Of a stretch of 44,773 nucleotides of DNA, positions 6,362-42,133 are shown piece after piece (within the stretch, counting starts at the first letter, position 1; each line of letters starts with the position of its first letter). The notes under the pieces are model-generated. The model made no database searches and was not told where the DNA came from. It worked only from the letters and a program-made list of their open reading frames with translations. Where the stretch lies: positions 1 through 44,773 of the forward strand of contig JAYTPG010000058.1 in NCBI GenBank assembly GCA_043747375.1. Reading direction: 5' to 3'. Source of the DNA: Candidatus Kaiserbacteria bacterium. Its GTDB lineage: Bacteria > Patescibacteriota > Minisyncoccia > Phycocordibacterales > UBA2100. Both the position numbers and the translations under genes were made by a program.

Positions 6362-6367
6362 GTCTTG

Positions 6368-13114: not shown

Positions 13115-13140
13115 GTGTCCACTCGTCCGTACGTATCCTT

Positions 13141-13168: not shown

Positions 13169-13178
13169 CTTTAATAAG

Positions 13179-13270: not shown

Positions 13271-13289
13271 GTATGGGGTGTGTATGCAC

Positions 13290-13319
13290 ATACTAACAGA
13301 TATTGCGCTCGTTGCGCAA
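13290..13319 (-). promoter_or_regulatory. Candidate metK promoter TTGCGC-18-(TGt)TAGTAT
   Basis: Minus-strand -35 at 13319..13314 and extended -10 at 13298..13290. The predicted start (about 13283) lies just upstream of the riboswitch P1. Confidence 0.4.
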
Positions 13320-13323
13320 CCAG

Positions 13324-13329
13324 TATACT
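13324..13329 (+). promoter_or_regulatory. -10 box TATACT, 7 nt before ATG 13337 (leaderless-type)
   Basis: cagTATACTtatcgctATG. Divergent from the metK promoter. Confidence 0.4.
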
Positions 13330-13336
13330 TATCGCT

Positions 13337-14263: not shown

Positions 14264-14281
14264 TGTGCTACAAAGGTAGGT

Positions 14282-14857: not shown

Positions 14858-14900
14858 AGCCCTTTTCTTTTCCCTAAAAGCTGATACAATGCTCTGCAAT

Positions 14901-14921
14901 GGCCTCATATGAGGCCTTTTT
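14901..14921 (+). terminator. Hairpin plus T5 after maf
   Basis: GGCCTCATATGAGGCC palindrome followed by TTTTT. It contains the ATG at 14909 used by the ORF track. Confidence 0.6.
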
Positions 14922-14923
14922 AT

Positions 14924-15913
14924 ATGCCTCATATCAAAAAAGTGGTGACGATTGGCGGAGGAACAGGAACTTTTACGGTTCTCTCCGGCCTTAAGAATTA
15001 TCCTCTTGATCTGACGGCGATCATTGCAATGACCGACGATGGCGGGTCATCGGGCGTCTTGCGAGACGAATACGGCGTGCTTCCTCCGGGCGACTTGCGA
15101 CAGGCGCTTGTTGCACTTTCCGACGCAGGCGGGGACATGCGCGACCTCTTCAATCATCGCTACCAAAATGGTGGCTTGAAGGGTCATAATTTTGGCAACC
15201 TTTTCATCTCGACACTGGAACAAGTAACCGGAAACCTCGATAAAGCACTTGAGGTAGTGAGCAATATTCTCAATATTCGAGGGCACGTTATTCCAGTCAC
15301 GCTTTCAAAAGTTAAACTCAAGATCGAACTCAACAACGGAAAAATAATTCACGGTGAAGACGCGATGCGCGGCTACCGCCTACTCTCAAAATTCGGTGTA
15401 AAGAAAATGCGTCTCGAGCCCGACGCGGTCGCCAACCCGAAAGCGCTCGAGGCCATAAAAGGGGCTGATCTCATCATTGTCTGCCCAGGTCACTTGTACG
15501 GCTCGCTCATCCCGAATTTCTTGGTTAAAGGCATAGGGCAGGCCGTAGCTAAATCGAAGGCAAAAAAGGTTTACGTCGCGAATCTCATGAATCGACATGG
15601 AGACACCGATAACTTTACCGTGAAAGACTATGTGGATGCACTTGAAAAAGCGATCGGCAAAAAGGGTACGTTTGATTACGTGGTATACAACACGAAAACG
15701 CCGCCAAAAAATCTTATAAAGAAATATGCAGAAGAAGGCGAACCGGTTGTTTGTGGTGATGAGTGCCAGAATGCAGCATTCAAACTTGTTGGCGCGAATT
15801 TGCTTTCAAAAAATGTGACTAACATCACCAAGGGCGACACGCTCGCATGGCAGCGAGCGCTCATTCGACACGATTCTGATGCGTTGGCGAAAGTTATTGT
15901 AGGTCTCAAGTAG
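14924..15913 (+). CDS. YvcK/CofD-like (gluconeogenesis factor family, UPF0052) protein
   Basis: VVTIGGGTGTFTVLSGLK...MTDDGGSSG...GPGSLY-like PGHLYGSLIPN. Start moved to ATG 14924, downstream of the terminator hairpin. Confidence 0.8.
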   Translation: MPHIKKVVTIGGGTGTFTVLSGLKNYPLDLTAIIAMTDDGGSSGVLRDEYGVLPPGDLRQALVALSDAGGDMRDLFNHRYQNGGLKGHNFGNLFISTLEQVTGNLDKALEVVSNILNIRGHVIPVTLSKVKLKIELNNGKIIHGEDAMRGYRLLSKFGVKKMRLEPDAVANPKALEAIKGADLIIVCPGHLYGSLIPNFLVKGIGQAVAKSKAKKVYVANLMNRHGDTDNFTVKDYVDALEKAIGKKGTFDYVVYNTKTPPKNLIKKYAEEGEPVVCGDECQNAAFKLVGANLLSKNVTNITKGDTLAWQRALIRHDSDALAKVIVGLK

Positions 15914-15934
15914 TCTCGACAGGCGCCCTCTCTT

Positions 15935-15943
15935 TGATAGCAT
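15935..15943 (+). promoter_or_regulatory. Extended -10 TGaTAGCAT, 6 nt before ATG 15950 (leaderless-type)
   Basis: ctctTTGaTAGCATatagggATG. Confidence 0.45.
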
Positions 15944-15949
15944 ATAGGG

Positions 15950-16450
15950 ATGAATTCCCGAACGTCGAGCACGGTGATTGTTCTACTCCTTTTGGTTATC
16001 GCTGTGTTGGGCTGGTTGCTCTCGACGAAATCCGCGGAGGCGCCTTCGACAAATGAGGTTGCAGTGCCTGTAAATTCCAATACTGAGGTTCCTGGAAATG
16101 TGCAAACGCCCCCAACAGCAAAGCCTCCGCTCTCCAAGCAGGTTCAAATACTTTCACCAAAAGCAAACGAGAGCGTCGGAAAGAAATTTACCGTGACTGG
16201 AAAAGCCCCTGGAAATTGGTTCTTTGAAGGGTCCGCGCCGATACAGGTGCGCGATTCAGAAACTAGCAAAATTTTTCAAGGTGTCGCCAAGGTGAGTGGT
16301 GATTGGATGACAACAAAGCTCGTCCCTTTTTCCGCTGACATAATAATTCAGGGATATTCGGGAAACGCCACACTCGTCTTTCTGAGAGATAACCCCTCGG
16401 GCATGCCGGAAAACGACGATTCCGTTGAGCTACCAATTAAAATCCAATAA
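15950..16450 (+). CDS. Secreted/anchored protein with Gmad2-type immunoglobulin-like domain
   Basis: N-terminal TM/signal segment. VQILSPKANESVGKKFTVTGKAPGNWFFEGSAPIQVRD...VPFSADI...NPSG fits the Gmad2 Ig-like pattern. Confidence 0.55.
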   Translation: MNSRTSSTVIVLLLLVIAVLGWLLSTKSAEAPSTNEVAVPVNSNTEVPGNVQTPPTAKPPLSKQVQILSPKANESVGKKFTVTGKAPGNWFFEGSAPIQVRDSETSKIFQGVAKVSGDWMTTKLVPFSADIIIQGYSGNATLVFLRDNPSGMPENDDSVELPIKIQ

Positions 16451-16452
16451 AT

Positions 16453-16836
16453 ATGGAGGGCGAAATAGAAAAACTGAGAAGTCCGAGGCAAATACTTGAA
16501 CGAAAGCTCGAAGACGCCGAGGGCGTTCGTAGACGTCTCCAGATTGGCCTGGAAGGTCTCGCACTAAAGGATACGGGCGACGGTGAGGTGGAAAAAGAAG
16601 TTCTTATTGTTCAAGGCTTTATAGACAAAATAGACGCCGCAAAAAGACTTCTCGCAAATACCGCAGCCTCGGATCACGACATTAGTCAAACGACGCAAGA
16701 TTTAGGCCTTGAAATCGAGGCATTTCGAAAATTTCGTGGCGTAGAAAGCGACAAAAAAGAGACTGGGGGCGGTATAGTGATTGACTGGCAGAAGGCCCGA
16801 AGAGAGATGCGAAATAGGGGCAGTTTGGGAATTTAA
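16453..16836 (+). CDS. Hypothetical protein (charged, helical)
   Basis: ATG lies 3 nt after the upstream stop and the ORF fills the gap to nth. No motif recognised. Confidence 0.45.
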   Translation: MEGEIEKLRSPRQILERKLEDAEGVRRRLQIGLEGLALKDTGDGEVEKEVLIVQGFIDKIDAAKRLLANTAASDHDISQTTQDLGLEIEAFRKFRGVESDKKETGGGIVIDWQKARREMRNRGSLGI

Positions 16837-16847
16837 TACGCAGTCCT

Positions 16848-17534
16848 ATGTCAAAGTTGGGCAAACTGCCGACCGAAAAAAGCGAGGCGAGAAAAACGCG
16901 TGTAAGAAAAATCGTACGTTCTCTCAAGAAGATATACCCCGTCCCCAAAAGCGAGCTTCGGTACGAAACCCCATTTCAATTTCTTGTGGCGGTAGTTCTT
17001 TCGGCTCAATGTACAGATAAGCTCGTGAATCGGGTCACGGACGAATTGTTTCAGAAATATAAAACTCCGAAAGATTTTGCGAGCACTAGTCTCAACGAAT
17101 TTACGAACGCGATTTCAAGTGTTAGTTTTTTTCGCAATAAGGCGAAGCACATTATGCTTGCTGCCAAAATGGTCTGCGAGGATTCTGGCGGCCACGTCCC
17201 TCGAAACGAAGCGGCTCTCGTTCGTTTGCCCGGCGTTGGCTACAAAACGGCACACGTTGTCTTGAACGAATTATTCAATATCTCTGAAGGAATTCCAACT
17301 GACACTCATGTAAAACGCTTCGCAAAGAAGTTTGATTTAACTGACCAATCGGACTTAAAAAAGATATCGAAGGAATTAGAGAAACTGATTCCCAAAAAGG
17401 ACTGGAAGTACGTGAATAACGGACTTGTGCTCTATGGGCGATATGTCTGCCCGGCGCGCCCGCACGACTGTGCGAAGCACCCGCTTACAAAATTATGGCC
17501 GCAAGCAGCCACACGGTGGCCCAAGGTGAAATGA
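16848..17534 (+). CDS. nth: Endonuclease III family DNA glycosylase (HhH-GPD) with a degenerate Fe-S ligand set
   Basis: PFQFLVAVVLSAQCTDKLVN, HhH LPGVGYKTAHVVL, catalytic region PTDTHV. The C-terminus is CPARPHDCAKHPLTKLW (C-x6-C-x2-H-x5-W). Confidence 0.8.
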   Translation: MSKLGKLPTEKSEARKTRVRKIVRSLKKIYPVPKSELRYETPFQFLVAVVLSAQCTDKLVNRVTDELFQKYKTPKDFASTSLNEFTNAISSVSFFRNKAKHIMLAAKMVCEDSGGHVPRNEAALVRLPGVGYKTAHVVLNELFNISEGIPTDTHVKRFAKKFDLTDQSDLKKISKELEKLIPKKDWKYVNNGLVLYGRYVCPARPHDCAKHPLTKLWPQAATRWPKVK

Positions 17535-26189: not shown

Positions 26190-28211
26190 TTAAGGTGCCA
26201 TCAAGGCGCGGCCTTGAGCGACAGTAACTGTTCTGATGCCGGTAGATTTTATGTAGTCGAGAATTTGTTGGAATTCGCTCGTCGGAATGTTGAATTGATC
26301 GGGCGTCGAACCTATTTGGTGGAAGCAAAGGATATACCACTGTTTGTTCGCTTTTGCCCTATCTATCCATGACTTGATAGAAGCAAGCGAAGTTGTGTTT
26401 TCGATGCACTGTGAGAAGAGGTTGTATTTGTCGCTTGTCCCCGTGTTGAGTTGACTGTCGTCCACCCCTCGGCCAGCGGCGTATCCTGCAGCTGCTGTCA
26501 GATTTTTAACCTTGGCGTTCACGGAACCATACGGGTAGGCGATTGTCGTCACGGCCTTACCAGTCAAGTTTTGCAAATAGGTACGAGAGCCAATGATCTC
26601 GTTATTAATCTGCGCGTTAGTGAGCGTGACAAGGTCTGGATGAGAAATTGTATGATCTGCAATCTCGTACCCGAGGTTTGCGATAGTAGTCGCCATCCCC
26701 GGAGTCATATACCCTGGGAAATTTGAGTTGTTCCGTATAACGTCAGAAATAAGGTAAAACGTCGCTGGAAGGCCAGATTTCTGCAGCACAGGTAATGCAT
26801 TTGTGTACTGAGAAGCCCATGCATCGTCGAACGACAAAGTCACCATGCCTTGTGTGAATACCCCGGGGGTCGGCACTATCACGGTAACAGGAACCGAAGC
26901 AGTGCTTGAGCCACCTGCGCCGGCGCACGAAATCGTGTAGGCCGAAGTTATTATTGGAGAAACAGAAAGCGATCCCGAGATTGCTTGAGCGCCGGACCAA
27001 GCTCCCGAAGCGGTGCAAGAAGTAGAGTTTTGGGAGCTCCAAGAAATCACCGTGGACTGACCTTGAGAAATGCTTGTGAGGCTTGCAGAAATCGTAACCG
27101 TCGGCTTTGGAGGTGGCGGCAAGATGTTTACGGTTACGGTCGCTTGCGATGATACACTGCCGCCTGCGCCAGCACAGGTCAGAACATAGGTTGTGGTAAT
27201 GGTGGGCGAAACTGTTTGTGAGCCCGCAAGTGCCAATGCGCCTATCCAGCCATTTGAGCCGGTGCACGAGGTCGCGTTCTGCGAACTCCAGACAAGTGAC
27301 GAGGACTGGCCTTGAATAATTGAGGTCGGGGTGGCGGTAAATGTGACCGCCGGTTTAAGGGGCGGCGGAGTTACTGGAAGAACATTTACGATGACTTGAT
27401 TTGAAACACTCCCACCGGTTCCGGTGCAGCTGAGTACAAATGTTGTAGTCGCAACTGGAGAAATTGTCTGCGTTCCCGAAAGAGCCACAACACCAGTCCA
27501 GCCATTCGATGCGGTGCACGAGGTCGCGTTTGTGGAGGTCCAAGAAAGAGTTGAATTCGAACCGGTGACAATGGATGTCGGACTTGCCGAAAAGGAAAGA
27601 GTTGGTTGGGCAGGCGGCGGCACGTCTGCTGTGAAAGAAACGTCATCAATCGTGAGTGTCCCTTTTAAGTAGATTAGTTGAAATACGTTGGCTTTTGTCA
27701 TGCCTGCTGGGATAACGATTGGAGCGGAGATTTGATTCCATGCTCCTGCAGAGGACGGAACGTCCGCCAGCCAATAATATGAGACGGCACCACCTGCGTT
27801 CGTGTACGCGACGTCTATTTCTGTCGCAACATTTGAGTTGTACCAGACACTATAGGTGTAGGAGGCGCCCGGAGTCACTGACGAGTCTGCGGGGAACCAA
27901 TTTGCGTCCCCCGTAGAATCAGCAGCGAACGTAATAGTCGCGCCTTTTGAGCCTGTATGAGCCGTAGCACTATAAGAGAAAGAGGGATTGGGCGTGCCCC
28001 AATAGGACTGACTCCAGCTTGCAGGAAGTGATCCCGCAGCAGCTTCAAAAGAAGGATTCTGAATCAGATTTGTCACCGCCTGAGCGTGCGAAACGTTCGG
28101 CGAAAATCCGATGCTCAATATCAAACCTGCTGTTAAAAACAAACCGCGCCCAGTGTGAAAATATCCCATACGAGAAAGTGGAATTATGACCCCCAATAAT
28201 TCAAACAGCAC
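26190..28211 (-). CDS. Secreted polysaccharide deacetylase (CE4/NodB) with N-terminal CBM-like domain and three tandem Ig-like repeats
   Basis: GTG start with AGGAG 8 nt upstream. NLIQNPSFE... is a CBM4_9-like module. Three ~85-aa repeats (aa ~198-446). NodB motifs LSFDDAW and HTISHPDL. Confidence 0.85.
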   Translation of the reverse strand: MLFELLGVIIPLSRMGYFHTGRGLFLTAGLILSIGFSPNVSHAQAVTNLIQNPSFEAAAGSLPASWSQSYWGTPNPSFSYSATAHTGSKGATITFAADSTGDANWFPADSSVTPGASYTYSVWYNSNVATEIDVAYTNAGGAVSYYWLADVPSSAGAWNQISAPIVIPAGMTKANVFQLIYLKGTLTIDDVSFTADVPPPAQPTLSFSASPTSIVTGSNSTLSWTSTNATSCTASNGWTGVVALSGTQTISPVATTTFVLSCTGTGGSVSNQVIVNVLPVTPPPLKPAVTFTATPTSIIQGQSSSLVWSSQNATSCTGSNGWIGALALAGSQTVSPTITTTYVLTCAGAGGSVSSQATVTVNILPPPPKPTVTISASLTSISQGQSTVISWSSQNSTSCTASGAWSGAQAISGSLSVSPIITSAYTISCAGAGGSSTASVPVTVIVPTPGVFTQGMVTLSFDDAWASQYTNALPVLQKSGLPATFYLISDVIRNNSNFPGYMTPGMATTIANLGYEIADHTISHPDLVTLTNAQINNEIIGSRTYLQNLTGKAVTTIAYPYGSVNAKVKNLTAAAGYAAGRGVDDSQLNTGTSDKYNLFSQCIENTTSLASIKSWIDRAKANKQWYILCFHQIGSTPDQFNIPTSEFQQILDYIKSTGIRTVTVAQGRALMAP
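26874..27620 (-). repeat. Three tandem ~255-nt coding repeats (Ig-like modules) inside the CE4 gene
   Basis: PTLSFSASPTSIVTGSNSTLSWTSTNATSCTASNGWTG.., PAVTFTATPTSIIQGQSSSLVWSSQNATSCTGSNGWIG.., PTVTISASLTSISQGQSTVISWSSQNSTSCTASGAWSG... Confidence 0.85.
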
Positions 28212-28692: not shown

Positions 28693-30345
28693 ATGGCAAA
28701 ACAAGTAATTTTCGACGCAGAAGTACGCAGCGCTCTTAAAAGAGGTGTAGATACGGTCGCAAATGCCGTGAAAGTAACGATCGGTCCTCGTGGTCGCAAT
28801 GTCGCACTCGATCGTTCATGGGGCTCTCCCGTCATAACGAACGATGGTGTATCAATTGCAAAAGAAATCACTCTCAAAGACAAATTTGAAAATATGGGCG
28901 CGGCAATCGTGAAAGAAGTCGCTACGAAGACGAATGATAAAGCGGGCGACGGCACCACGACCGCAGTTGTACTTATGCAGGCTATCGTGCACGAAGGTTT
29001 GAAGCGCACCGCGCTCGGCGCAAATGCCATGATGGTTCGTCGTGGCATCGAAGCTGGCGCAAAAGCGGCAGTTGAAGAACTGAAAAAAATGGCAAAACCG
29101 ATTTCGGGAAAAGACGACATCCGTCAAGTTGCGACTATTTCTGCAGAGAGTGAAGAGCTTGGAAAAACGATTGCGGACACCGTTGAAAAAGTAGGGAAAG
29201 ACGGCGTTGTCACTGTTGAGGAATCACAATCGCTTGGTATTGAAGCCGAATACGTCGAAGGCATGGAATTCGACAAAGGATATGTTTCCGCATACATGAT
29301 TACCAATGCTGACCGCATGGAGGCTGAGGCGCGAGACGCATCAGTCCTGGTTACCGACAAAAAGATTTCTGCGATCAAGGATATTCTTCCAGTCTTAGAA
29401 AAAGTTGCGCAAAGTGGCAAACGAGATCTTGTCATTATTGCGGACGATGTTGACGGAGAAGCACTCACTACATTTGTCGTTAATAAACTGAAAGGAGTTT
29501 TCAACGTGCTCGCGATCAAAGCTCCTGGTTATGGCGATCGAAAGAAAGAGATGCTTCAAGATATTGCAATTACCCTCGGTGCACAATTGATTTCTGACGA
29601 CCTCGGAATGTCGATGGAAAAAATAGACTTGAACATGCTCGGAAAAGCAACGCGAATCGTTGCGACGAAAGATTCGACCGTGATTGTTGGCGGCAAAGGA
29701 AAAAAAGCGACCATCGAAGAACGCGTTGCTTCTTTGCGAAAGCAACTTGATCAGACGGATTCTAAATTCGACAAAGAGAAAATCGCCGAGCGAATTGCGA
29801 AACTCACGGGCGGTGTCGCCGTCATTCGAGTTGGCGCGGCCACCGAAACAGAAATGAAATACTTGAAAGACAAAATCGAAGACGCGGTAAACGCAACCAA
29901 GGCTGCGATTGCAGAAGGCATCGTCCCTGGCGGAGGCGCGGCACTCGCAAAAGTGGGTGAAAAACTCGCAAAAAAGCTTGATCCGAAAGCGCACGATGAA
30001 TACACGGTGGGCTATCGGATTCTGCTCACTGCACTTTCTGCTCCTCTTCTTCAGATTGTAAAAAATGCAGGGCGCGAAGACGGCGCGGTCATTTTGCGGG
30101 ACGTGGTGGCGAAAGGTCCGGCCTGGGGTTTTGACGCATCAAGTGAATCAAATGAATACGAGCTGGTTGATATGTACGAAGCGGGGATTATTGACCCGGT
30201 GAAAGTCACTCGTAGCGGCGTAGAAAATGCAGCTTCAGCGGCGGCTGTGCTTCTCACCACGGAAGCAGCAGTTGCTGATCTTCCTGAACCGAAGGCTGCT
30301 CCAGCTGGGGGCCAAGGCGGAATGGGAGGCATGGACATGGACTGA
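28693..30345 (+). CDS. groEL: Chaperonin GroEL
   Basis: AKQVIFD...GPRGRNV...DGTTTA...C-terminal GGMGGMDMD. Confidence 0.98.
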   Translation: MAKQVIFDAEVRSALKRGVDTVANAVKVTIGPRGRNVALDRSWGSPVITNDGVSIAKEITLKDKFENMGAAIVKEVATKTNDKAGDGTTTAVVLMQAIVHEGLKRTALGANAMMVRRGIEAGAKAAVEELKKMAKPISGKDDIRQVATISAESEELGKTIADTVEKVGKDGVVTVEESQSLGIEAEYVEGMEFDKGYVSAYMITNADRMEAEARDASVLVTDKKISAIKDILPVLEKVAQSGKRDLVIIADDVDGEALTTFVVNKLKGVFNVLAIKAPGYGDRKKEMLQDIAITLGAQLISDDLGMSMEKIDLNMLGKATRIVATKDSTVIVGGKGKKATIEERVASLRKQLDQTDSKFDKEKIAERIAKLTGGVAVIRVGAATETEMKYLKDKIEDAVNATKAAIAEGIVPGGGAALAKVGEKLAKKLDPKAHDEYTVGYRILLTALSAPLLQIVKNAGREDGAVILRDVVAKGPAWGFDASSESNEYELVDMYEAGIIDPVKVTRSGVENAASAAAVLLTTEAAVADLPEPKAAPAGGQGGMGGMDMD

Positions 30346-30367
30346 TAATTCGAAAATGGTGAATGCA

Positions 30368-30399
30368 ATACGGCCACCCGAAGGGCGGCCGTATTTTTG
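30368..30399 (+). terminator. Intrinsic terminator of groESL
   Basis: ATACGGCCaCCC-gaa-GGGcGGCCGTAT followed by TTTTTGT. Confidence 0.85.
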
Positions 30400-30605
30400 T
30401 GGATGCCAACTCAATAAAAACAGGAAACGCAAGAAGGACAAAAAAAGAAATAACTGTACACATCTTGGTCGACCGTCCGAAATGTGTACAGAGTAAATAA
30501 TGCAAACAATGTGGTACAAGGTTTTTTTAAACCCCATTGTCAAGGCGACGCCTTGACATGGCTAGACCCGAACCCGTTTAACGAGAATTCATTGCAATAT
30601 GTTTT

Positions 30606-30848
30606 TCAATACCTGAAATTCGCGACATCAACATGTCTATATTCTTTTGCATAGCCAAACACAGTTCGCATTTGTTCCGTCAGTGCCGCGATTGCTTTTG
30701 TGTTCTCTGTAATTTGAGATTGTAAATCGAGACGCAGTTGTCGCAAATCTTCTTTTGTGGCAAGAGTGGACATGGTCCCGCGCATCGAAGGCATGTTCTC
30801 TTGCATGTCAGTCACAATTTCCAGTATTTGTTTAGTTCCTTTGTCCAT
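30606..30848 (-). CDS. Hypothetical 80-aa coiled-coil protein
   Basis: Minus-strand TATAAT (30860..30855) lies exactly 6 nt before the ATG. Heptad-like TKEDLRQLRLDLQSQITENTKAIAALTEQ. Confidence 0.5.
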   Translation of the reverse strand: MDKGTKQILEIVTDMQENMPSMRGTMSTLATKEDLRQLRLDLQSQITENTKAIAALTEQMRTVFGYAKEYRHVDVANFRY

Positions 30849-30854
30849 GAAGAA

Positions 30855-30860
30855 ATTATA
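30855..30860 (-). promoter_or_regulatory. -10 box TATAAT, 6 nt before ATG 30848 (leaderless-type)
   Basis: Minus strand gaatcTATAATttcttcATG. Confidence 0.5.
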
Positions 30861-30904
30861 GATTCAATTGTATTTCTTGCACCCTTTCAGCCAGGCTGTT
30901 TTCA

Positions 30905-30913
30905 TGTTATAAT
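30905..30913 (+). promoter_or_regulatory. Extended -10 promoter TGtTATAAT of the 35-aa peptide gene
   Basis: TGtTATAATACTAGAC. Nearly identical to the box at 31173-31191 (TGgTATAATACTGGcAGAC). Confidence 0.5.
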
Positions 30914-30963
30914 ACTAGACCTGTCAGGGTCGACAGTGAACATTGTAAGGAAAGGTTATTTCC

Positions 30964-31071
30964 ATGACCTGGTTGGACAAACTTGGACTTGTAATACTTT
31001 TTCCCATAGCAGTCTCGTACCTTGCGGCCGCGCTACATCGTGGTGGTGTCGCCTGGCGACATAAATGGTAA
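30964..31071 (+). CDS. 35-aa single-TM peptide (below the ORF-track size cut-off)
   Basis: aaGGAAAGG Shine-Dalgarno 9 nt before the ATG. MTWLDKLGLVILFPIAVSYLAAALHRGGVAWRHKW. Has its own extended -10 upstream and a 12-bp perfect terminator directly downstream. Confidence 0.5.
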   Translation: MTWLDKLGLVILFPIAVSYLAAALHRGGVAWRHKW

Positions 31072-31097
31072 AAAAGAAAATAAGTTCCTCCCTCAAG

Positions 31098-31139
31098 CGT
31101 CCAGATGCATTGGGCTGCATCTGGACGTTCTTTATTGTT
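31098..31139 (+). terminator. Intrinsic terminator of the 35-aa peptide gene
   Basis: CGTCCAGATGCA-ttgggc-TGCATCTGGACG followed by TTCTTTATTGTT. Confidence 0.85.
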
Positions 31140-31153
31140 AGAAAGGGCAGCTG

Positions 31154-31181
31154 TTGATTATTTCTGATAATTTGGTATAAT
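31154..31181 (+). promoter_or_regulatory. Promoter TTGATT-16-(TGg)TATAAT of the 76-aa gene
   Basis: -35 at 31154-31159, extended -10 at 31173-31181. Confidence 0.55.
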
Positions 31182-31229
31182 ACTGGCAGACTAGAGCTCT
31201 TAACCACGCGTTGAAAGGACGCTCGGAAA

Positions 31230-31460
31230 ATGACGAAGCTCACGCTTCTCGGAGTATCGCTTTTTGTGACTATTGTGCTTTGTGCACAAGGGGCACAGGA
31301 CTGCATTTTCAGTGACGGAGGAGAGAAATGGTATTGTCCCGCGGGATTTTCATCAATGGAGGGTCACCCTCCCCGCGACAACATCGTCAAATCTTTTCTT
31401 CCCACGGAAGATGCGTCTCCGCGACAAGATCGCGAGGACATCGAAGCGAAAAGAAGCTAA
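31230..31460 (+). CDS. 76-aa secreted small protein (signal peptide, Cys-containing mature part, charged tail)
   Basis: aAAGGAcgctcggaaaATG. MTKLTLLGVSLFVTIVLCAQG..DCIFSDGGEKWYCPAGF. Has its own promoter and terminator. Confidence 0.55.
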   Translation: MTKLTLLGVSLFVTIVLCAQGAQDCIFSDGGEKWYCPAGFSSMEGHPPRDNIVKSFLPTEDASPRQDREDIEAKRS

Positions 31461-31466
31461 TGCAAA

Positions 31467-31508
31467 AGAGGCGCACGTTGAATAAACGCTGCGCCTCTCG
31501 AGTTTTTT
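31467..31508 (+). terminator. Intrinsic terminator of the 76-aa gene
   Basis: AGAGGCGCA-N14-TGCGCCTCT followed by cgagTTTTTT. Confidence 0.75.
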
Positions 31509-31566
31509 GGAACGTAAGAATCTCGCTTTGGTTATTCCCATATAAATAATTCAGCCCGAAAACCGG

Positions 31567-31575
31567 TGCTAGAAT
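31567..31575 (+). promoter_or_regulatory. Candidate extended -10 TGcTAGAAT for the giant gene
   Basis: ggTGcTAGAATtgattcttgtagtttcatATG. The predicted leader is about 12 nt. Confidence 0.35.
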
Positions 31576-31593
31576 TGATTCTTGTAGTTTCAT

Positions 31594-34500
31594 ATGCGGA
31601 TGTCACAAGGCACTTTTCGAAATCTTTCTAAAATCATTTTTGTCTTGAGTTTTGCTATTTTTTTTCTAGGCGCTCCTACGTCGTTTGTTTTTGCCGGGAG
31701 CGGAAATGCAGCGTGTGTAGGCGGGGATTATTCATGTGAATATCCTGCAAAGAAACAGCCTAACATCAACTCCTCTGCAACTGTTCAGTGTATGCAAAAG
31801 AAGCCCTGTCAGGACACTGCGGCAGGGGCAATCACTAATGGATTTTGCAAATCTGATGGCGTTTGTTCTGCCGAAACAACTGCTCTGAAAGATGACAAGC
31901 AACAAAAAATCCAGCAGGTCTCTAAGGACGCTCTCGATGGGGCGACGCCAAAAACTCAAGGTCGTCTTGGTGATTCTCCAAGCACTGATGCTGAGCCAGG
32001 CTCACCTCTAAACAACGGCACAACACAATCGACTGTTGATCTAAAAGGTGACTACAATCCTCCACCGGAAAGCACGGCCAATAATTTCCCAAAGGCCGGC
32101 AGTTCGCCGGATGTTACCGCTGATCCAGGCCCTAATACTCCCTTGAAGCCGGGCACGGGCGAAACAACGATCGAAAAAGCGGTGGATGGAAACCCGTCAA
32201 AAGGATTTTCGAGATGGGCAAATTTGGTCGGTGATATTTTTTCCATGCCGATTTTCGGCGGCGGCGGGAGTGGTTTTGGTGGTGGCTCGATGGACGGTGG
32301 TTTTTTTGGTGACAGTAGCGGTGGCTTAGGTGGCGGTTCATTTTATTCCGGCACAACTGGATTTACTAGTGGAGGCGGCGTTCCCGTAGGTCAGTCAGGT
32401 CAACTCCCCGGGTATGGGAAAGCGGGAGCAGATTCATTTGTCACTGGTCCTTGCCTAAACGGAAGTTGTATAGCAAAAAATGGAATACCAGCAGGTGTTG
32501 CACAAAATCCCGTGGTACCACAACAATCGAGCATCGCTTCGCTTATGGAGCAGGGGAAACAGGCGATAGCAAATGGTTTTCCAAGCTTCCCGCAGAACGC
32601 ATTCGAGAGTTTTAAAATTCCAGAAATTGCTCAACTCTCAAATCAGGGAAACTCATCAGCGTTTTTGACTGACGTCCCAGGCACGAGCCTATCTTTTCCA
32701 CAATCCGACGTTTTTGGAAATACCGTTCTTGCAGAAAACGGCCTAGTCCAGTCCGACGCGAGCCTTATTCCTCGAACAGGAGATGGGGGAGATATCTCTC
32801 AAAAAGCAGCAGACTACAACGCAGGTATCGATAAGATAAATCAAGATGTCGCGGCGACTCGAAAGGAGTTTCTCGCGTCTCATCCAGGATGTAACGCATC
32901 CGACGCGTGTGTTCAGGAGTTGTACAGGAAAATTTCAGAAGTCCAGAATAAGGGTTTCTCAGATCCGAATCTTGGTGATCCTCTAAGTACCGTCGTAGAT
33001 GAGGCGAACAAGCAGAATATTCACGACAGCGCAGCACAAGCGGGCAGATCTTCGAGCGAATATTTACTCAGCAAATATGGGGTTACCCCGGCCCAGGTGC
33101 AGCAAGGAGTAACTGAAACAGGAAGCATTGGCCCGCGGTCTGAAAACACCAATCCGGTTCCCGGGATTACCGTAAGTACCGAAAATCCCACGGGCCAATC
33201 TGCGCCAGGAGCCGTTTCTGCAGACCAATTTAACGTCACTGCAGAAAATCAGCCAACCATTTTTGAGGCGGCACAAAAAACAGCCGGGGATGGGTTCCAA
33301 AGTCTAAAAGAAAACGCATCAAACGCTTTTGAAAATGTGAAGTCCGGTGTTCGGTATGCCTATAATGAGTACACTCCGTTTGGTTCTCCCACCGCGAACG
33401 GAAATCAAATCGCGAACGATGCAAATATTTCTCCGAGTATTCTTGACGCTAATGTGGGCAACTCCCCGCTTGCTCCAGGGAGTCTTTTTACTGAATCAGA
33501 CCTTCAGGCTGCACGTGGTGCGGATCAGATACTGGGGCGGACTTCCCAAGGAGGAAGCACTTTAAGTGAGTCTCCACAGAATCCAAATTTTTCCGCAGAA
33601 CCGAAACTTACGGACGTCGCTGGCATCCAGGTAGATAAAGCTCTTACAGGAAAAGAGATAACGGGGAGCTCTTTTGCCGAAGCGTCCGGAATTATCTGCA
33701 AAGACCGCGGATGTGATGCTGGGTTTACCGCCAAGGCACTGGGAGGCAGTGCCGCGCAGGAGTCTAATTGGAATCCCAATAACTCCACGGGGTCATTTGA
33801 GGGAATAGGACAGCTTAATGACTCGGAGACAGGACGAGCGACTCGTTCTCTAGAAAAGTTGGCCGCTGCGCCGAATTATTTAACAGAACAAGATCGTAAT
33901 ACAGTTCTTGGTGTTGTTGATGATATAAAAGCCTCAGAAGCCGCAGGAAAAAATCCAAATAACGATCCTCGACTTGGGGCGTGGCTTATGACGGCTCGGC
34001 AGGCTGATTTATCGGGACTCGGTAAAAATGTGAGTGGAATTGACGCGGCGAATGAGTTTGCCGCAGGAGATGCTAAAACAGGAGCCGCCGTGATTCAATT
34101 GGGACAACTTGCACCAAGCGCACTGACTGGACCAGATGGATTTGATCCGGATAGGGCACTTACATCAAACGAACGATGGGCACTGCGAGTGAATTCTTTA
34201 CCGAGCATATCTAACGGGGATACGGTAGGTGACGCAATAAGTAAAATCGAAAATAGTCCGATTTACTCAAAGCATTTTGATCAGGGTATTGCGTGGACGA
34301 CGGCATATGCCCCTGATACTTCAGCCGTTCCGGAAAACATTGCTTCAAGCATAGATCGTTCGGGCTCCTCTTTAAATGGCTCTCGCGCTGCGAGTATTCC
34401 GTCTGACATTGCAAATACACCATGGAATTCAGAGGCACCGATTGTGGCATACGATCCTTCACTTAGCCCAAACGAAGTGCAGGCAAATGGTGCTGAAGAG

Positions 34501-36990
34501 TTTGTTTCAAAACGCATGTCAGCACCAGAGATGGCCGCTTCGGGGGCTAAGAATCAGGAGTTTGCAAACATCTCTTCTGGCGACTTTGCGGTGCGCGGAG
34601 TTACTGCAACGTCACCAGTTACCACTGATACACAAACACGGCAGGAGTTTATATTAAATGGGGAAAAAGCCCCCTCCGTTCAAGAGACTGATTCTAGAAA
34701 CGAAGTTGCAAATCTTGCGGCAGGAGAGACGCAAGGCAATAATCAAAATCCCGCGGCCGCCACGGGAGTGCCGTTTGCGCAAAAAAATGTTGCTTTAATG
34801 CCTCACACATACAGATATGATTCGAATACGGGAGAAATTATAGAGACCACCAATCCGCTCACGCTTTCAGAGGGCAAGCCAGTTAATTTTTCCAATGCTG
34901 AGCCGCCCACAGTGAATACTGTAAAACCCGGCTATTATGTTAAGGGTCCCCTCTGGCAATTCTCAGGACAAGATCAGATATTCGTCGGATCAACTCCAGA
35001 AATAGACTCTCCCGCAGGTCCGTCAGGAAGCCCTAGTGGTCCGGCGGCTTTCGGTAATTTGCCCGCAGTGCCTGTCGGGCAAGTAGAAATGTCTTCACTG
35101 GAACCGATTAATAGCCCACTTGGCAACAGCAATGCGATTGCAGAGTACCCGTCGCCATACCAGCTTAATAAGCCCGCCATACTTCAGGGCGGGAATGTCA
35201 ACGTAGCGCAAAATGGCGGCACAGGGCAATCTTTGACTGATTTCGGCGGTGCGCCCGATTGGTCGCGAAGATCGTTTGGGCCAAACCTTTCGGCCTCAGC
35301 TGAATCGCCAAAAGGTCCGGATGGTTTGCAGAATTTTAATGTTGCCCAAGAAGCTCCAATGCTTGCATATAATCGAGCGCGTGGGGCGATTCTAGAGGGG
35401 GACGCCACCCAAAACGGGGGAACATCGAATGGTGCTTACCGATTGGATTATGTTGCTTCAGAAAGCCAGTTTGCTAAATCGGCTTTTGGACCCAGCCTCG
35501 CTGTGGCCTTCCAGCCTGCTTCACAGCCTCTACCGAGTGACGTCTTGAGAGGCGATCGGATCGGACCAGATGCAAATGGTTTTGTTTCTGCTCAGAAAAG
35601 TGTTGGACCGGCGGGCCTGCCCGTTAACGGGCAATTTGGCTCACAGCTTCCAAGCCAGCAAGTCGCCGGAACTCCACGAGTGGCAGCCGGTAATTTTAAC
35701 GGGACATATTTGATTGCGGCAGATCGATCATTAAGTGACCCTTCTACACTCGAGAGACGACTCTCTTTTGTTGACGCAAATAAATTTTCTGCTCCCGATA
35801 GTGCGCCGAATTCTGTCGTAGCAAATCGGGATGCTGCACCACTCTGGAAACTTGGCTCATTTACTTCGCCGATTGGTGGGATGGCTGTCGATGTCCCACG
35901 TACGCCTGGTCTCACAGGCTCGCAGAGCGGAGAAGCCGTGCGAATTGGCTCCGCTCAAAACGGAGGCTCGGTGAATGGGTACATTGCGCAGGCGGTGAAT
36001 CAGCAGGGATTCACATCTGAGACCCATCCCGCATTGCCAGTCTTTAATCCCGCCGCAGGCGTCGCTGTTGCGAATGCACGGCCTGAGGGAACATCTCAAG
36101 ATTCATTCCAGCCCGCAAATAGTCCAGAAACAAAGGTGGCACAGCTCCCAGAAATTACTGTGGTGCAAGCTCAGTCTACGCAAACACAACATGCGCCAGC
36201 GGTATTTGCGAATCCACAGAATCCTGGGGCAAATGTTGTTGGCTTGGACAGAAACATACGACCAGCAGCTATTCCTGCGATTCTCGACGCGTCGAAAAAT
36301 CCTGCACCAGTTCACGTTGCGGCAAATATTCCTCCGCGAACTCCTCCTAGCACCGTACAAGCGAGCATGTTTGGCAATATGAATTTTGGTTCGCTCTTGA
36401 GTGGATTAACCGGAGCGCTTTCAAGCCTTTTTGGCTCCGGAAGCAAGAGTGCTTCGCCGTCGCAACCCGCCGCCCCGAAAGGGAAGCCGATTATTTCAGT
36501 CGTCGTAAATCCGTCGGTTGTTGAAAAAGGGAAAGGAACGACGCTCGCATGGGGAGGGGTAAATTGGAGTGATGAAGCTTCTACCAGGTGCGGCATCTTT
36601 GGACCAAACGGAAAAATATTTGAAGGAGGCATAAATGGGAAGACGACCACTTCGCCACTGACCCACACGAGTGAATTTGCCATTGCGTGTGTGGGCTTGA
36701 AGGCGCACGACAGCGCACTGCAAAGAATTGTTGTGCAAGTTTCGGGGGATTCAGGTGTTCCAACAAAAGCGGTAATCTCAGGGCAATTCTCCGGAGCGCA
36801 AGACAGCACAGGAATTAGCGCTGCAACGAACGGAACTGCGCAGAATACTTCTCCTCAGCAGACAGGATCCGTTTCTACGGGAGGCGTTACTCCTATTCCG
36901 CAAAGCCCAAACGAATCATGCAATCCTAATTCACCAAATTTCGTTGCATGTTTGGAGGCGCAGATGTCGCCGTCAGACAAGTTGTATTAA
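31594..36990 (+). CDS. 1798-aa secreted giant protein: Cys-rich N-module, Gly-rich tract, low-complexity N/Q/S/P/G regions, SLT-like motif, C-terminal Ig-like module
   Basis: Uninterrupted ORF. Signal-like IIFVLSFAIFFLGAPTSFVFA. AAQESNWNPNNSTGSFEGIGQL at nt 33751-33816. C-terminal KPIISVVVNPSVVEKGKGTTLAWGG...CG...FAIACVG at ~36484-36750. Confidence 0.85.
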   Translation: MRMSQGTFRNLSKIIFVLSFAIFFLGAPTSFVFAGSGNAACVGGDYSCEYPAKKQPNINSSATVQCMQKKPCQDTAAGAITNGFCKSDGVCSAETTALKDDKQQKIQQVSKDALDGATPKTQGRLGDSPSTDAEPGSPLNNGTTQSTVDLKGDYNPPPESTANNFPKAGSSPDVTADPGPNTPLKPGTGETTIEKAVDGNPSKGFSRWANLVGDIFSMPIFGGGGSGFGGGSMDGGFFGDSSGGLGGGSFYSGTTGFTSGGGVPVGQSGQLPGYGKAGADSFVTGPCLNGSCIAKNGIPAGVAQNPVVPQQSSIASLMEQGKQAIANGFPSFPQNAFESFKIPEIAQLSNQGNSSAFLTDVPGTSLSFPQSDVFGNTVLAENGLVQSDASLIPRTGDGGDISQKAADYNAGIDKINQDVAATRKEFLASHPGCNASDACVQELYRKISEVQNKGFSDPNLGDPLSTVVDEANKQNIHDSAAQAGRSSSEYLLSKYGVTPAQVQQGVTETGSIGPRSENTNPVPGITVSTENPTGQSAPGAVSADQFNVTAENQPTIFEAAQKTAGDGFQSLKENASNAFENVKSGVRYAYNEYTPFGSPTANGNQIANDANISPSILDANVGNSPLAPGSLFTESDLQAARGADQILGRTSQGGSTLSESPQNPNFSAEPKLTDVAGIQVDKALTGKEITGSSFAEASGIICKDRGCDAGFTAKALGGSAAQESNWNPNNSTGSFEGIGQLNDSETGRATRSLEKLAAAPNYLTEQDRNTVLGVVDDIKASEAAGKNPNNDPRLGAWLMTARQADLSGLGKNVSGIDAANEFAAGDAKTGAAVIQLGQLAPSALTGPDGFDPDRALTSNERWALRVNSLPSISNGDTVGDAISKIENSPIYSKHFDQGIAWTTAYAPDTSAVPENIASSIDRSGSSLNGSRAASIPSDIANTPWNSEAPIVAYDPSLSPNEVQANGAEEFVSKRMSAPEMAASGAKNQEFANISSGDFAVRGVTATSPVTTDTQTRQEFILNGEKAPSVQETDSRNEVANLAAGETQGNNQNPAAATGVPFAQKNVALMPHTYRYDSNTGEIIETTNPLTLSEGKPVNFSNAEPPTVNTVKPGYYVKGPLWQFSGQDQIFVGSTPEIDSPAGPSGSPSGPAAFGNLPAVPVGQVEMSSLEPINSPLGNSNAIAEYPSPYQLNKPAILQGGNVNVAQNGGTGQSLTDFGGAPDWSRRSFGPNLSASAESPKGPDGLQNFNVAQEAPMLAYNRARGAILEGDATQNGGTSNGAYRLDYVASESQFAKSAFGPSLAVAFQPASQPLPSDVLRGDRIGPDANGFVSAQKSVGPAGLPVNGQFGSQLPSQQVAGTPRVAAGNFNGTYLIAADRSLSDPSTLERRLSFVDANKFSAPDSAPNSVVANRDAAPLWKLGSFTSPIGGMAVDVPRTPGLTGSQSGEAVRIGSAQNGGSVNGYIAQAVNQQGFTSETHPALPVFNPAAGVAVANARPEGTSQDSFQPANSPETKVAQLPEITVVQAQSTQTQHAPAVFANPQNPGANVVGLDRNIRPAAIPAILDASKNPAPVHVAANIPPRTPPSTVQASMFGNMNFGSLLSGLTGALSSLFGSGSKSASPSQPAAPKGKPIISVVVNPSVVEKGKGTTLAWGGVNWSDEASTRCGIFGPNGKIFEGGINGKTTTSPLTHTSEFAIACVGLKAHDSALQRIVVQVSGDSGVPTKAVISGQFSGAQDSTGISAATNGTAQNTSPQQTGSVSTGGVTPIPQSPNESCNPNSPNFVACLEAQMSPSDKLY

Positions 36991-37046: not shown

Positions 37047-37595
37047 ATGATTTTTTTACTTATTGTGGGAGCCGTAATTGCCTGGGCAATATACGCGTAC
37101 AATCGCTTCGTCACGCTCGCGACACAAATTAAAGAAGCGTGGTCAGATATAGATGTGCAGCTTAAGCGCCGTTATGACCTCATTCCAAATCTTGTTGAAA
37201 CCGTAAAGGGGTACGCGGAGCACGAGGCGGGGACACTGGAGAAGGTGACCGAAATGCGGACGCGCGCAATGAATGCGACCGTGCCAGCGGAGAAAGCAGA
37301 GGCAGAGAACCTGCTTTCAGGTGCACTCAAGTCGCTCTTTGCGGTTTCCGAGAATTACCCGAATTTGAAGGCGAATGAAAACTTCTTGGAATTGCAACGT
37401 GAGCTTTCCGACACGGAAAACAAGCTTCAGGCCGCGCGTCGCTTCTACAATTCAGTCGTTAAAGAACTGAATGCGGCCGTACAAATGTTCCCAGGAAATT
37501 TGATCGCAGGCTGGGGTGGATTCAAAATGGAAACGTTCTTTACGCTTGCCGAAAATGAATCTGCTGCAAAAGAACCAGTGCAAGTGAAATTCTAA
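37047..37595 (+). CDS. lemA: LemA family protein
   Basis: N-terminal TM helix. YNRFVTLATQIKEAWSDIDVQLKRRYDLIPNLVETVKGYAEHE and ...ENKLQAARRFYN. Confidence 0.9.
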   Translation: MIFLLIVGAVIAWAIYAYNRFVTLATQIKEAWSDIDVQLKRRYDLIPNLVETVKGYAEHEAGTLEKVTEMRTRAMNATVPAEKAEAENLLSGALKSLFAVSENYPNLKANENFLELQRELSDTENKLQAARRFYNSVVKELNAAVQMFPGNLIAGWGGFKMETFFTLAENESAAKEPVQVKF

Positions 37596-37597: not shown

Positions 37598-38134
37598 ATG
37601 GTTGAGAGTGGGGAAAGACCAAATAAGAAACCCCACGGAATTGCTGAGCTGGCACGTGCTGCGGTTGCAGCTACAATGCTTAGCGCGGCTGGTCCCGTGG
37701 AGATTGTTCACGCAAAAGGAGATGCCGCATTTGAACAAAGTGATAAGATGTTGCAAAACGGTAAAGGTTTAGAGCTGCGCATGTCCGAATCAGCTCAAAA
37801 GGAAAGCCAAAAACTCACCGCTTTTATTCACGATTTTTTTGAAGAGAAATCTCCGCAGAGAGATGTTTTTTCTCTAATCGCAAACAGTTTGCCCGACGCT
37901 GATTTGAAGGTCTTTCTAGCTGCGGTCGTCAAAGTGGCTCACAGACGCATATTTGCGGGCGGGTCTGGTGTCGGGTTCATTACCTCAACAGTGGAGTTTC
38001 AGAGTGCCGTTTATAGTGAGATGAGTAGAAATGCCGATCACGAGCTGTCGATATCGCAAATCGCTTCTATGACGGGACCGCTATCACGTGGAGCGGATCA
38101 CTGGATTCATAATCAGGAACATCAACCGAAATGA
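37598..38134 (+). CDS. Hypothetical protein
   Basis: ATG lies 3 nt after the lemA stop. 178 aa with a signal/TM-like AAVAATMLSAAGP. No motif recognised. Confidence 0.5.
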   Translation: MVESGERPNKKPHGIAELARAAVAATMLSAAGPVEIVHAKGDAAFEQSDKMLQNGKGLELRMSESAQKESQKLTAFIHDFFEEKSPQRDVFSLIANSLPDADLKVFLAAVVKVAHRRIFAGGSGVGFITSTVEFQSAVYSEMSRNADHELSISQIASMTGPLSRGADHWIHNQEHQPK

Positions 38135-40052: not shown

Positions 40053-40137
40053 GGAGGCGTCGCATAGTGGTCTAGTGCGCTCGCTTGGAAAGCGAGTGTG
40101 CCGAAAGGCACCGTGAGTTCGAATCTCACCGCCTCCG
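40053..40137 (+). tRNA. tRNA-Ser (anticodon GGA), long variable arm, no encoded CCA
   Basis: Acceptor GGAGGCG/CGCCTCC. D-arm GCA-TAGTGGTCTAG-TGC. Anticodon arm CTCGC-TTGGAAA-GCGAG. Variable arm TGTGCCGAAAGGCACC. T-arm GTGAG-TTCGAAT-CTCAC. Discriminator G. Confidence 0.95.
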
Positions 40138-40293
40138 CTCTGTGTGGAAGAAAGCACTCGCCCTGGAAATGCTTTCGACACTGATCCAGCACCCACCTCA
40201 GATTTCTTAATTTTTTAAGTTGACTCTTCAGAAGGATCATCTACACTTGGGCACATTAGTTAGTAGTATATTCGTCACACTATTTCATTATTT

Positions 40294-41775: not shown

Positions 41776-42122
41776 CTGCACAAAGCAGTCGCCCTCAAGT
41801 AATTGGGGGAGGAAAGTCCGGACACGCGCGCGCAAGCGCAGACAGGTAGCGGGTAACGCCCGTCGGAAGTGATTCCAGGGATGCGAGCAGAGACGCCAAT
41901 GCCGAGAGGCTAGGGTGCCCAGTCTGCCGAAAGGCAGGCTTGGGGATAGTCCTGTAGTAATACAGGAATGAAACGGCAAAATTCCTATCCGCGTGCAAGG
42001 CCGTGCTTGTTGCAACCACGCGTGGCAACAAGAGAGCCGCTTGAGGTTGTCGGTAACGACGATCCCAGACACATGATTGCTCAACCGCGAAAGCGGGGGA
42101 CAAAATCCGGCTTATGGTGCAG
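41776..42122 (+). ncRNA. rnpB: RNase P RNA (bacterial type A core)
   Basis: GGAGGAAAGTCCGGAC (P4 5' strand) and ACAAAATCCGGCTTAT (P4 3' strand). P1 is CTGCAC (41776-41781) / GTGCAG (42117-42122). ~347 nt. Ends are approximate. Confidence 0.85.
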
Positions 42123-42133
42123 TGAAGCCGAAA

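Follow-up and report, generated by a model that had tools for sequence, protein, structure and literature searches.

A giant secreted protein of a Kaiserbacteria-type bacterium with a conserved, probably lysozyme-like domain encoded between groEL and lemA

To our knowledge, next to nothing is known of the way in which Paceibacteria-type bacteria within the Candidate Phyla Radiation (CPR) contact and exploit other cells, and none of them has been cultured with a defined host. Secreted lytic transglycosylases and giant surface proteins have been proposed as tools for host interaction in CPR bacteria (PMC11665869, PMC8080830). Giant surface proteins have been described in Vampirococcus lugosii (PMC8080830) and Patescibacterium danicum (PMC11809585), and SLT-like regions have been found in the giant 'Archaeovorins' of Omnitrophota (bioRxiv 10.1101/2023.11.21.568195). 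Here, we describe a giant gene carried by contig JAYTPG010000058.1 of a Candidatus Kaiserbacteria bacterium. The contig, 44,773 nucleotides long, was analysed as a whole and is called the window; coordinates in it refer to the forward strand unless stated otherwise. The secretion of murein hydrolases and the existence of giant, fast-evolving surface proteins are already known in CPR bacteria. What is new, within the searches made, is the domain family found in the middle of the giant protein, its divergence from curated models, its address between groEL and lemA and a module that the protein shares with a neighbouring deacetylase.

The best explanation of the data, which we hold to be moderately probable in view of sequence comparisons and structural models, is that the gene encodes a Sec-exported giant protein with a murein-active lysozyme-like domain. 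The domain itself probably represents a new, strongly diverged lysozyme-like family, with a likely activity of the lytic transglycosylase or lysozyme type. The initial annotation had already proposed a lysozyme- or SLT-like motif around a catalytic-type glutamate; as detailed below, this interpretation is only partly supported, since the glutamate is conserved, the expected profile match is missing and the confident model has no significant structural neighbour.

The giant protein is encoded by one uninterrupted open reading frame (ORF; 31594-36990) of 1798 codons plus stop, as first described, with no rival long ORF on either strand. Public-data gene callers place the start at Met3 (31600), giving a protein of 1796 residues, and all public copies of the family are labelled 'hypothetical protein'. 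The signal-like character attributed to the N-terminus is borne out by a Kyte-Doolittle peak (19-residue window) of 2.25 at residues 14-32. A Sec-type signal peptide is predicted at residues 1-34 (31594-31695), with RNLSK as n-region, IIFVLSFAIFFLGAP as h-region and, read by eye, a cleavage-type site after A34 (V-F-A followed by G). A comparable signal-type N-terminus occurs in 9 of the 11 homologues described below. A 19-residue Kyte-Doolittle scan and a motif check revealed neither a second transmembrane segment nor an LPXTG motif in the protein.

The domain of interest covers residues ~690-915 (~225 residues; 33661-34338). Its family was searched for exhaustively with phmmer, using residues 670-930 as query against 1.84 billion representative proteins. 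Eleven homologues were found (E 1e-38 to 2e-8, identity 30-45%) in proteins of 682-2389 residues, and the region in common always corresponded to residues ~21-245 of the query. A word-indexed protein search with the full giant protein returned only the copy of a sister strain (99% identical); the negatives of that search with the domain or the family alignment carry no weight, because the 99%-identical P0001 was missed too. In JGI metagenome contigs and in IMG/VR, pattern scans built from the four closest sequences detected no relative.

In the alignment of the giant protein with its 11 homologues (12 sequences, 27-40% identity), conserved blocks are CKxxGC (702-707), QES (722-724), GIGQL (737-741), NPNxDPxxGAWLxxARQ (787-803), QLAPS (838-842) and GIA (898-900). 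Ten residues are invariant, E723, G737, Q740, P788, G795, Q838, A840, P841, A881 and G898, and S724 (11 of the 12 sequences), Y/F735, D791, W797 and L798 are nearly so. The motif AAQESNWNPNNSTGSFEGIGQL, reported at residues 720-741 with its glutamate codon GAG at 33760-33762, is indeed there, and the glutamate in question, E723, passed the proposed conservation check, being present in all 12 sequences. By chance alone, ESx[FWY]xP should turn up 0.04 times in a protein so composed; together with G.GQ[LIM] 10-20 residues downstream, the joint expectation falls to 3e-5. Of greater weight is that every homologue keeps the motif.

Several lines of evidence point to the lysozyme superfamily. When single members of the family were scanned against Pfam, the only families matched by two members at E<0.02 were Phage_lysozyme2 (0.0012) and SLT (0.0033 and 0.014). 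The matches come from P0002 and P0004, the two closest homologues of the giant protein, and span profile positions 11-69, that is, the half carrying the catalytic motif. P0002 reaches 17.4 bits with SLT against a cut-off of 21.3, and P0004 reaches 15.4 bits with SLT and 19.5 bits with Phage_lysozyme2 (PF18013), for which the cut-off is 28.2. The family was also aligned by hhalign with a reference made of the SLT domains of five genuine family-1 enzymes of E. coli (Slt70, MltC, MltD, MltE and MltF). This alignment sets E723 on the catalytic glutamate of Slt70 and GIGQL on GLMQI, with a score of 30.0 and P 9e-4 over 33 columns; the controls gave 12.2 for the reversed profile and at most 18.2 (P at least 0.066) for 30 column shuffles.

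Structure prediction is consistent with these alignments. AlphaFold2 (AF2), supplied with the 12-sequence alignment, returned a confident model (predicted local distance difference test, pLDDT, 90.7; predicted template-modelling score, pTM, 0.89); from the single sequence, pLDDT was 40. The modelled domain is all-alpha, with eleven helices, plus a short beta-hairpin. In the numbering of the model, a helix at residues 26-41 ends at E40, which is E723, and S41; a beta-hairpin at 47-57 holds G54 and Q57, and a helix follows at 60-74. Thus E723, the putative general acid, would lie at the C-terminal end of the helix formed by residues 709-724, and the hairpin that comes next carries G737 and Q740. 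Such a helix-Glu-hairpin is the active-site arrangement of lysozyme-like enzymes. When the model was compared by Foldseek with BFVD, 17 of the top 50 entries bore the explicit name of peptidoglycan hydrolase, muramidase (phi12 P5), LT_GEWL, phage tail lysozyme, lytic transglycosylase, SLT or phi29 gp13, and 4 more were tape-measure proteins, with best probabilities of 0.91-0.97. In the PDB, GH23 chitinase, GH124, MltF, MltD or phage lytic transglycosidase made up 12 of the top 50.

A number of results weigh against the assignment and have to be set beside these signals. First, the proposed hidden Markov model (HMM) check failed: the whole giant protein, five segments of it and the excised domain have no match in Pfam, NCBIfam or PHROGs, even at E<=10, and the giant protein finds nothing at this level among PDB sequences either. 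The family profile matched no lysozyme or SLT among PDB sequences, its sole match being the de novo 4D2 helical bundle (E 0.15). The Pfam signals mentioned above concern only 2 of the 12 members and all stay below gathering scores, and the hhalign probability is 23% over its 33 columns. Second, Foldseek gave no neighbour at E<=0.001 in the PDB or BFVD. Its best BFVD match has E 0.028 and a GH23 entry in the PDB E 1.2, with TM-scores of 0.3-0.42, never above 0.42, and root-mean-square deviations of 6-17 Å; from a genuine GH23 domain modelled with confidence, far better scores would normally be expected. The best PDB matches are unrelated helical proteins, for example PqqC and designed repeats. 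Third, motif III of SLT (AYNxG) is not conserved in the family alignment; a greedy hhalign run sets AARQ (residues 800-803) opposite AAYN with zero alignment confidence. As to motif II, GIGQL keeps the invariant G737 and Q740, and the L-M positions of GLMQ are not kept. Finally, with a GH23 chitinase and a GH124 cellulase among the structural matches, some other beta-1,4 glycan may be the substrate. The central functional claim still rests on weak remote-homology signals.

These observations could be explained if the SLT resemblance were a short motif arisen by chance and residues 690-915 formed an unrelated all-helical domain, as the lack of any significant HMM, profile-profile or fold match and the helical proteins heading the PDB list would suggest. 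We regard this as unlikely. Five weak but independent signals, none significant alone, converge on the lysozyme superfamily and on E723, namely the sub-threshold Pfam matches, the hhalign score above its controls, the enrichment in Foldseek, the helix-Glu-hairpin and the co-occurrence with peptidoglycan modules described below; the joint motif expectation calculated above also speaks against chance. In any case, because the HMM threshold is not reached and motif III is missing, the domain should not be classed within PF01464/GH23.

Three modules of the giant protein are common to the family according to whole-protein phmmer comparisons, the lysozyme-like domain and one module near each end, together ~23% of the length. 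The N-terminal Cys-rich module (residues 41-91; 31714-31866) had been described as an 8-Cys module; the module is real, and its cysteines number six (41, 48, 66, 72, 85 and 91), arranged as three CX5-6C pairs. Across the family, C41 is nearly invariant and C72, C85 and C91 fully so, and the signal plus Cys-rich N-terminus matches P0008 at E 4e-10 (phmmer). The C-terminal module, of ~95 residues (~1625-1720; 36466-36753), is defined by homology: it is found by phmmer in P0002, P0004-P0006 and P0010 (E 1e-5 to 1e-11), with V, W and two Cys (1666/1699 in the giant protein) invariant. A module of ~90 residues had been announced there as closing the protein; it exists, and is followed by a non-conserved S/T/G/Q-rich tail of ~78 residues (36754-36987) that contains the last Cys pair, 1776/1786. 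The fold of the module is probably an Ig-like beta-sandwich; because the Ig-like hints are weak (a He_PIG match of one member at E 0.003 and PDB matches with E at least 0.04), the module is left unlabelled.

Some homologues carry additional wall-related modules, all above Pfam cut-offs: PG_binding_1 in P0007 and P0008, and Amidase_2 in P0010. Other stretches were noticed by eye and are not confirmed by Pfam, namely a CHAP-like stretch in P0010, an M15-like H-x-x-x-x-x-x-D...H stretch in P0009 and an SGNH-like GDS motif in P0011. The modules above the cut-offs bear on the idea that the domain would be a non-catalytic glycan- or wall-binding module, the glutamate serving binding or folding and the protein being an adhesin or a surface fibre. 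Giant size, low complexity and fast evolution are typical features of surface adhesins in CPR bacteria (PMC8080830, PMC11809585), and the weak fold match to active enzymes and the missing motif III would fit a domain without activity. However, E723, S724, G737 and Q740 are kept across 27-40% identity, as is typical where an active site has been retained, and a second, binding-only domain would be redundant in homologues that already pair the domain with PG_binding_1. Such a role thus seems improbable.

Between and around the modules, the giant protein is rich in small and polar residues (A 11.5, G 11.1, S 10.9, P 8.0, N 7.1, T 6.4 and Q 5.6%), and most 40-residue windows consist of 55-70% G, S, P, N, Q, T and A. 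About 1400 residues are fast-evolving low-complexity sequence, probably extended or disordered. The Gly-rich tract FGGGGSGFGGGSMDGGFFGDSSGGLGGG, also noted at first reading, is located at residues 221-248 (32254-32337), within the first unconserved low-complexity region (residues ~92-689). The motifs QNGG[TS] (residues 1206, 1273 and 1455) and FGP[NS]L (residues 1228 and 1298) are present three times and twice, respectively, as had been seen, but their repeat character is not sustained beyond a faint duplication of ~68 residues: self-BLAST and Tandem Repeats Finder revealed no real internal repeats at the DNA or the protein level. The 16 cysteines all belong to closely spaced pairs; besides those of the terminal modules and the tail, these are 287/292, 433/439 and 702/707, the last within the lysozyme-like domain. 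The GC content across the gene is unremarkable.

The low-complexity sequence is also where strains differ. A sister-strain contig (L081) is 99.68% identical to window positions 21603-44773 over 23.2 kb. There are 66 mismatches, and three clusters hold 61 of them, one each in the giant gene, a deacetylase gene and the 3' end of groEL. The 36 differences in the giant gene are all located in the second low-complexity region, at residues 1083-1553 (34840-36252), mostly in two patches (35352-35440 and 36198-36251). The deacetylase gene has ~15 mismatches, at 26868-27965, and an indel of 3 nt at 27360; groEL has 10 at its 3' end (30216-30276), where indels occur as well. In the variable patches, the synonymous divergence pS is ~0.3 and the pN/pS ratio 0.23-0.26 (0.23-0.30 for the variable region). 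A ratio of 0.3 even in the variable low-complexity part means that this is real, constrained coding sequence, and positive selection in the variable region is not supported. The pattern suggests that the patches are short recombination imports from a diverged allele whose sequence is kept under purifying selection. A diversity-generating retroelement was considered as their source and rejected, there being no template/variable repeat pair and no adenine-specific changes; no reverse transcriptase was found among the window ORFs scanned.

The giant gene occupies a conserved place in the genome. It stands between groEL (28693-30345) and lemA (37047-37595), and a groES-groEL-X-lemA(-M48 peptidase) slot holds 9 of the 11 homologues. 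P0009 (L092, 3466-10029) and P0010 (L093, 370-4611) lie elsewhere; P0011, also distant, is outside the groEL-lemA slot. The shared slot indicates that the giant gene is vertically inherited and lineage-specific, not mobile. Some 24 further CPR loci have lemA directly after groEL, and close relatives without the giant gene (L002 and L003, with about 20 other loci) show the two genes side by side; the gene therefore fills the slot in a subclade only. Conservation within the slot is very uneven: compared between syntenic loci, GroEL, LemA and M48 show 62-84% identity from end to end, whereas only 13-19% of the giant protein can be aligned, at 31-44% identity. The statement that the context matches no described system was thus right for type IV secretion systems (T4SS), pili and phages, and the slot itself was out of sight of that reading.

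In one Kaiserbacteria metagenome-assembled genome (MAG; L001), the slot is taken by another secreted protein, of 1572 residues (12551-17269, forward strand). Its N-terminal Cys pattern is the same; it was nevertheless rejected as a homologue, being without detectable similarity or lysozyme-like domain. The C-terminal 'YTGTxxQN' repeats of this protein match a phage family of L-Ala-D-Glu peptidases (phrog_2307, E 7e-8) and are similar to the C-terminal end of P0003. As a further observation on the slot, two homologue loci have a gene for a 23S_rRNA_IVP/bAvd-like four-helix bundle between lemA and M48 (L088, 17770-18129; L094, 13383-13751), and the corresponding position of the window is occupied by an unannotated ORF of 178 residues (37598-38134).

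The fixed slot bears on two rival explanations. In one of them, the giant gene would be the remnant or the cargo of a mobile element, such as a T4SS hydrolase of the VirB1 type, or a tape-measure or tail lysozyme from a phage. Proteins of the latter two kinds do appear in the structural match lists, and Phage_lysozyme2 is the best single Pfam match of a homologue. Yet no T4SS, pilus, phage, integrase or transposase gene occurs in the 44.8 kb of the window, the initial annotation having been right about the first three next to the gene, or in the homologue loci. With the domain as query, tblastn returned nothing from 50,697 phage and 72,556 plasmid records. Add to this the lack of IMG/VR relatives, the ordinary GC content and the chromosomal slot, and a mobile origin appears extremely unlikely; an origin of the gene in a phage or plasmid is effectively excluded by the tblastn, context and slot evidence.

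The second explanation deserves more weight, although we consider it clearly less probable than the best explanation given above. Here, the giant protein would be a lineage-specific autolysin or spacemaker that remodels the peptidoglycan of the producer itself during growth, division or the passage of surface structures, and would be co-expressed with envelope-stress and quality-control genes. Vertical inheritance in the slot fits this idea. So does the distance of only 50-80 bp between groEL and the giant gene in four homologue loci, which suggests co-transcription with groEL. Furthermore, there is no immunity-like gene or secretion apparatus near the giant gene, and a Mur ligase, MurJ and a polysaccharide deacetylase are encoded in its neighbourhood. 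On another hand, more than 80% of the length has diverged past recognition, which is unexpected for a housekeeping protein and contrasts with the conservation of GroEL, LemA and M48. Close relatives do without the gene, and the giant protein of L001 has no lysozyme-like domain. In the window itself, groEL and the giant gene are separated by a non-coding spacer of 1.25 kb (30346-31593, GC 0.44) holding a terminator-like hairpin with a 14-bp stem (31096-31129) and a promoter-like site (31154-31181; 10/12 match, extended -10). This spacer has no coding or Rfam similarity, and a structured RNA was rejected in the absence of an Rfam match.

The deacetylase gene provides a further link with the cell wall. 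It encodes a secreted polysaccharide deacetylase of 673 residues on the reverse strand (26190-28211) and is the second hot spot of strain variation. An HMM of the C-terminal module of the giant protein matches it three times (residues ~203-283, 287-368 and 372-451; domain E 1e-8 to 1e-9). The three tandem copies, of ~85 residues with two Cys each, directly precede the catalytic domain, and are also visible as a DNA repeat family, D1 (26956-27530, period ~250 nt). The orthologous deacetylase of L089 has two copies. The module shared by the two proteins is therefore an accessory of extracellular wall-directed enzymes in this lineage.

Taking these data together, the following mechanism seems the most likely one for a giant protein with a murein-active domain. 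The protein would be exported via Sec, and its Cys pairs would be oxidised, with disulfides knotting the N-terminal module; a DsbA-like gene is present in the window. The long low-complexity stretches, if flexible, would act as spacers giving reach, and the terminal modules would mediate attachment. The lysozyme-like domain would cut the glycan strand of peptidoglycan with Glu723 as single general acid. A single general-acid glutamate is what lytic transglycosylases and goose-type lysozymes use. The enzyme would act beyond the cytoplasmic membrane, either on the cell surface or where the cell touches another one.

Which wall would be cut is a matter of balance. The speed of its evolution, its patchy distribution over the phylogeny and the way of life of CPR bacteria favour a role at an interface or directed at a host, in line with proposals made for secreted lytic transglycosylases and giant surface proteins (PMC11665869, PMC8080830, PMC11809585). 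A role on the producer's own wall is favoured by the fixed housekeeping slot and by the probability that, in several genomes, the gene is transcribed together with groESL. As a rough apportionment, the wall of a host or partner may tentatively be put forward as target, the producer's own wall is a possibility of somewhat lower rank, and the remaining share, which is no smaller than these, goes to another target or to none. It is tempting to go further and to imagine that residues 690-915 found a new glycosidase family, of distant descent from the lysozyme/GH23 superfamily and with a structure of its own, forming the enzymatic head of a long flexible surface tether with which Kaiserbacteria-like episymbionts open partner walls, that the deacetylase protects or marks walls, much as deacetylase and lysozyme are paired in Bdellovibrio, and that the hypervariable spacers are exchanged between strains by recombination to track hosts or evade phages; taken as a whole, this extended scenario is rather unlikely.

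The GroEL encoded in the window shares 80% identity with its counterpart in a Candidatus Kaiserbacteria MAG, and the best 37 matches all come from Patescibacteria/Paceibacteria-type genomes. Hence the window is from a CPR bacterium, and the guess of an episymbiont-type organism was correct at the level of the lineage. The content is all housekeeping, with an ABC transporter, GH18, a DsbA-like protein, MsrB, an M10-like peptidase, PurF, GlmS, MetK, Maf, CofD, a Mur ligase, DNA glycosylases, RNase J, a solute-binding protein, the polysaccharide deacetylase, GroES/EL, LemA, an M48 peptidase, MscL and a tetratricopeptide repeat (TPR) protein. Three of these proteins are probably extracytoplasmic: the chitinase-like GH18 (2891-4084), the DsbA-like thioredoxin (4731-5498), which fits the paired cysteines of the giant protein, and the matrixin-type M10 peptidase (6365-7294). 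RNA features are a glmS ribozyme upstream of glmS (9915-10113), a SAM riboswitch upstream of metK (13176-13273, reverse strand), tRNA-Ser(GGA) (40053-40138) and a class A bacterial RNase P RNA (41776-42126).

The giant-gene family thus offers a concrete and testable candidate for cell-cell interaction in CPR bacteria, with a secreted protein, one conserved catalytic-type glutamate and a confident model. The domain (residues ~684-919) could be expressed by itself, and the fixed groEL-X-lemA address makes orthologues easy to find. It is also worth underlining that no curated library recognises this domain family, and that an exhaustive HMMER search and an alignment of 12 sequences sufficed for a model with a pLDDT of 91.

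The comparison with known systems shows partial likeness to each of them. With SLT (PF01464, GH23), the domain shares an E-S motif with the glutamate at a helix end and x(F/W)xP after it (ESNWNP, for ESAWNP in Slt70), G-x-x-Q on the following hairpin (GIGQL versus GLMQI) and a mostly alpha-helical, extracytoplasmic nature. It differs in size (~225 residues versus ~150-170), in extra helices after motif II, in the absence of AYNxG, in the scores of all members below the Pfam cut-off, in TM-scores of ~0.17-0.19 to MltF and MltD, and in blocks of its own, NPNxDPxxGAWLxAARQ, QLAPS and GIA, plus a predicted CKxxGC disulfide.

Phage tail lysozyme (PF18013) and the lytic transglycosylase domains of tape-measure proteins likewise place a lysozyme-like domain mid-way in a very long, largely non-globular protein. 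This family also provides the best Pfam match of a homologue (E 0.0012) and many BFVD matches, with probabilities of up to 0.97. In contrast, the giant protein has a Sec signal, its gene sits in a conserved chromosomal slot by groEL, and no phage genes are near. Multidomain VirB1-like peptidoglycan hydrolases belonging to the T4SS of monoderms, such as TraG of pIP501 and PrgK of pCF10, which have homologues in Patescibacteria (PMC12102498), are large secreted proteins that combine SLT-like with wall-active or wall-binding domains, and some members of the present family similarly add Amidase_2 or PG_binding_1. However, virB4 or any other T4SS gene is missing from the 44.8 kb and from every homologue locus, no CHAP domain was detected in the giant protein, and its low-complexity regions are far longer.

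Bdellovibrio pairs peptidoglycan deacetylases with DslA, a lysozyme specific for deacetylated peptidoglycan. In the present locus too, the genes for a polysaccharide deacetylase and for a lysozyme-like protein, both secreted, lie near each other, and here the two proteins share a module as well. The parallel is an analogy only, as peptidoglycan as substrate of the deacetylase and a discrimination of acetylation by the domain are not supported here.

Finally, the giant proteins of CPR bacteria and the Archaeovorins carry recognisable Pfam domains (FhaB, PKD, WD40, TPR and SLT), unlike the present family, which is without such Pfam domains and has a fixed groEL-lemA position. With 1798 residues, a signal-type N-terminus, low complexity, 13-19% of alignable length and a CPR lineage, the protein has the features of the class of CPR giant secreted proteins. 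It shares with CPR giants and Archaeovorins a length of more than 1000 residues, a secreted or surface location, very fast evolution, few full-length homologues and a proposed role at the cell interface; the likeness to the Archaeovorins extends to the SLT-type domain that some of them have.

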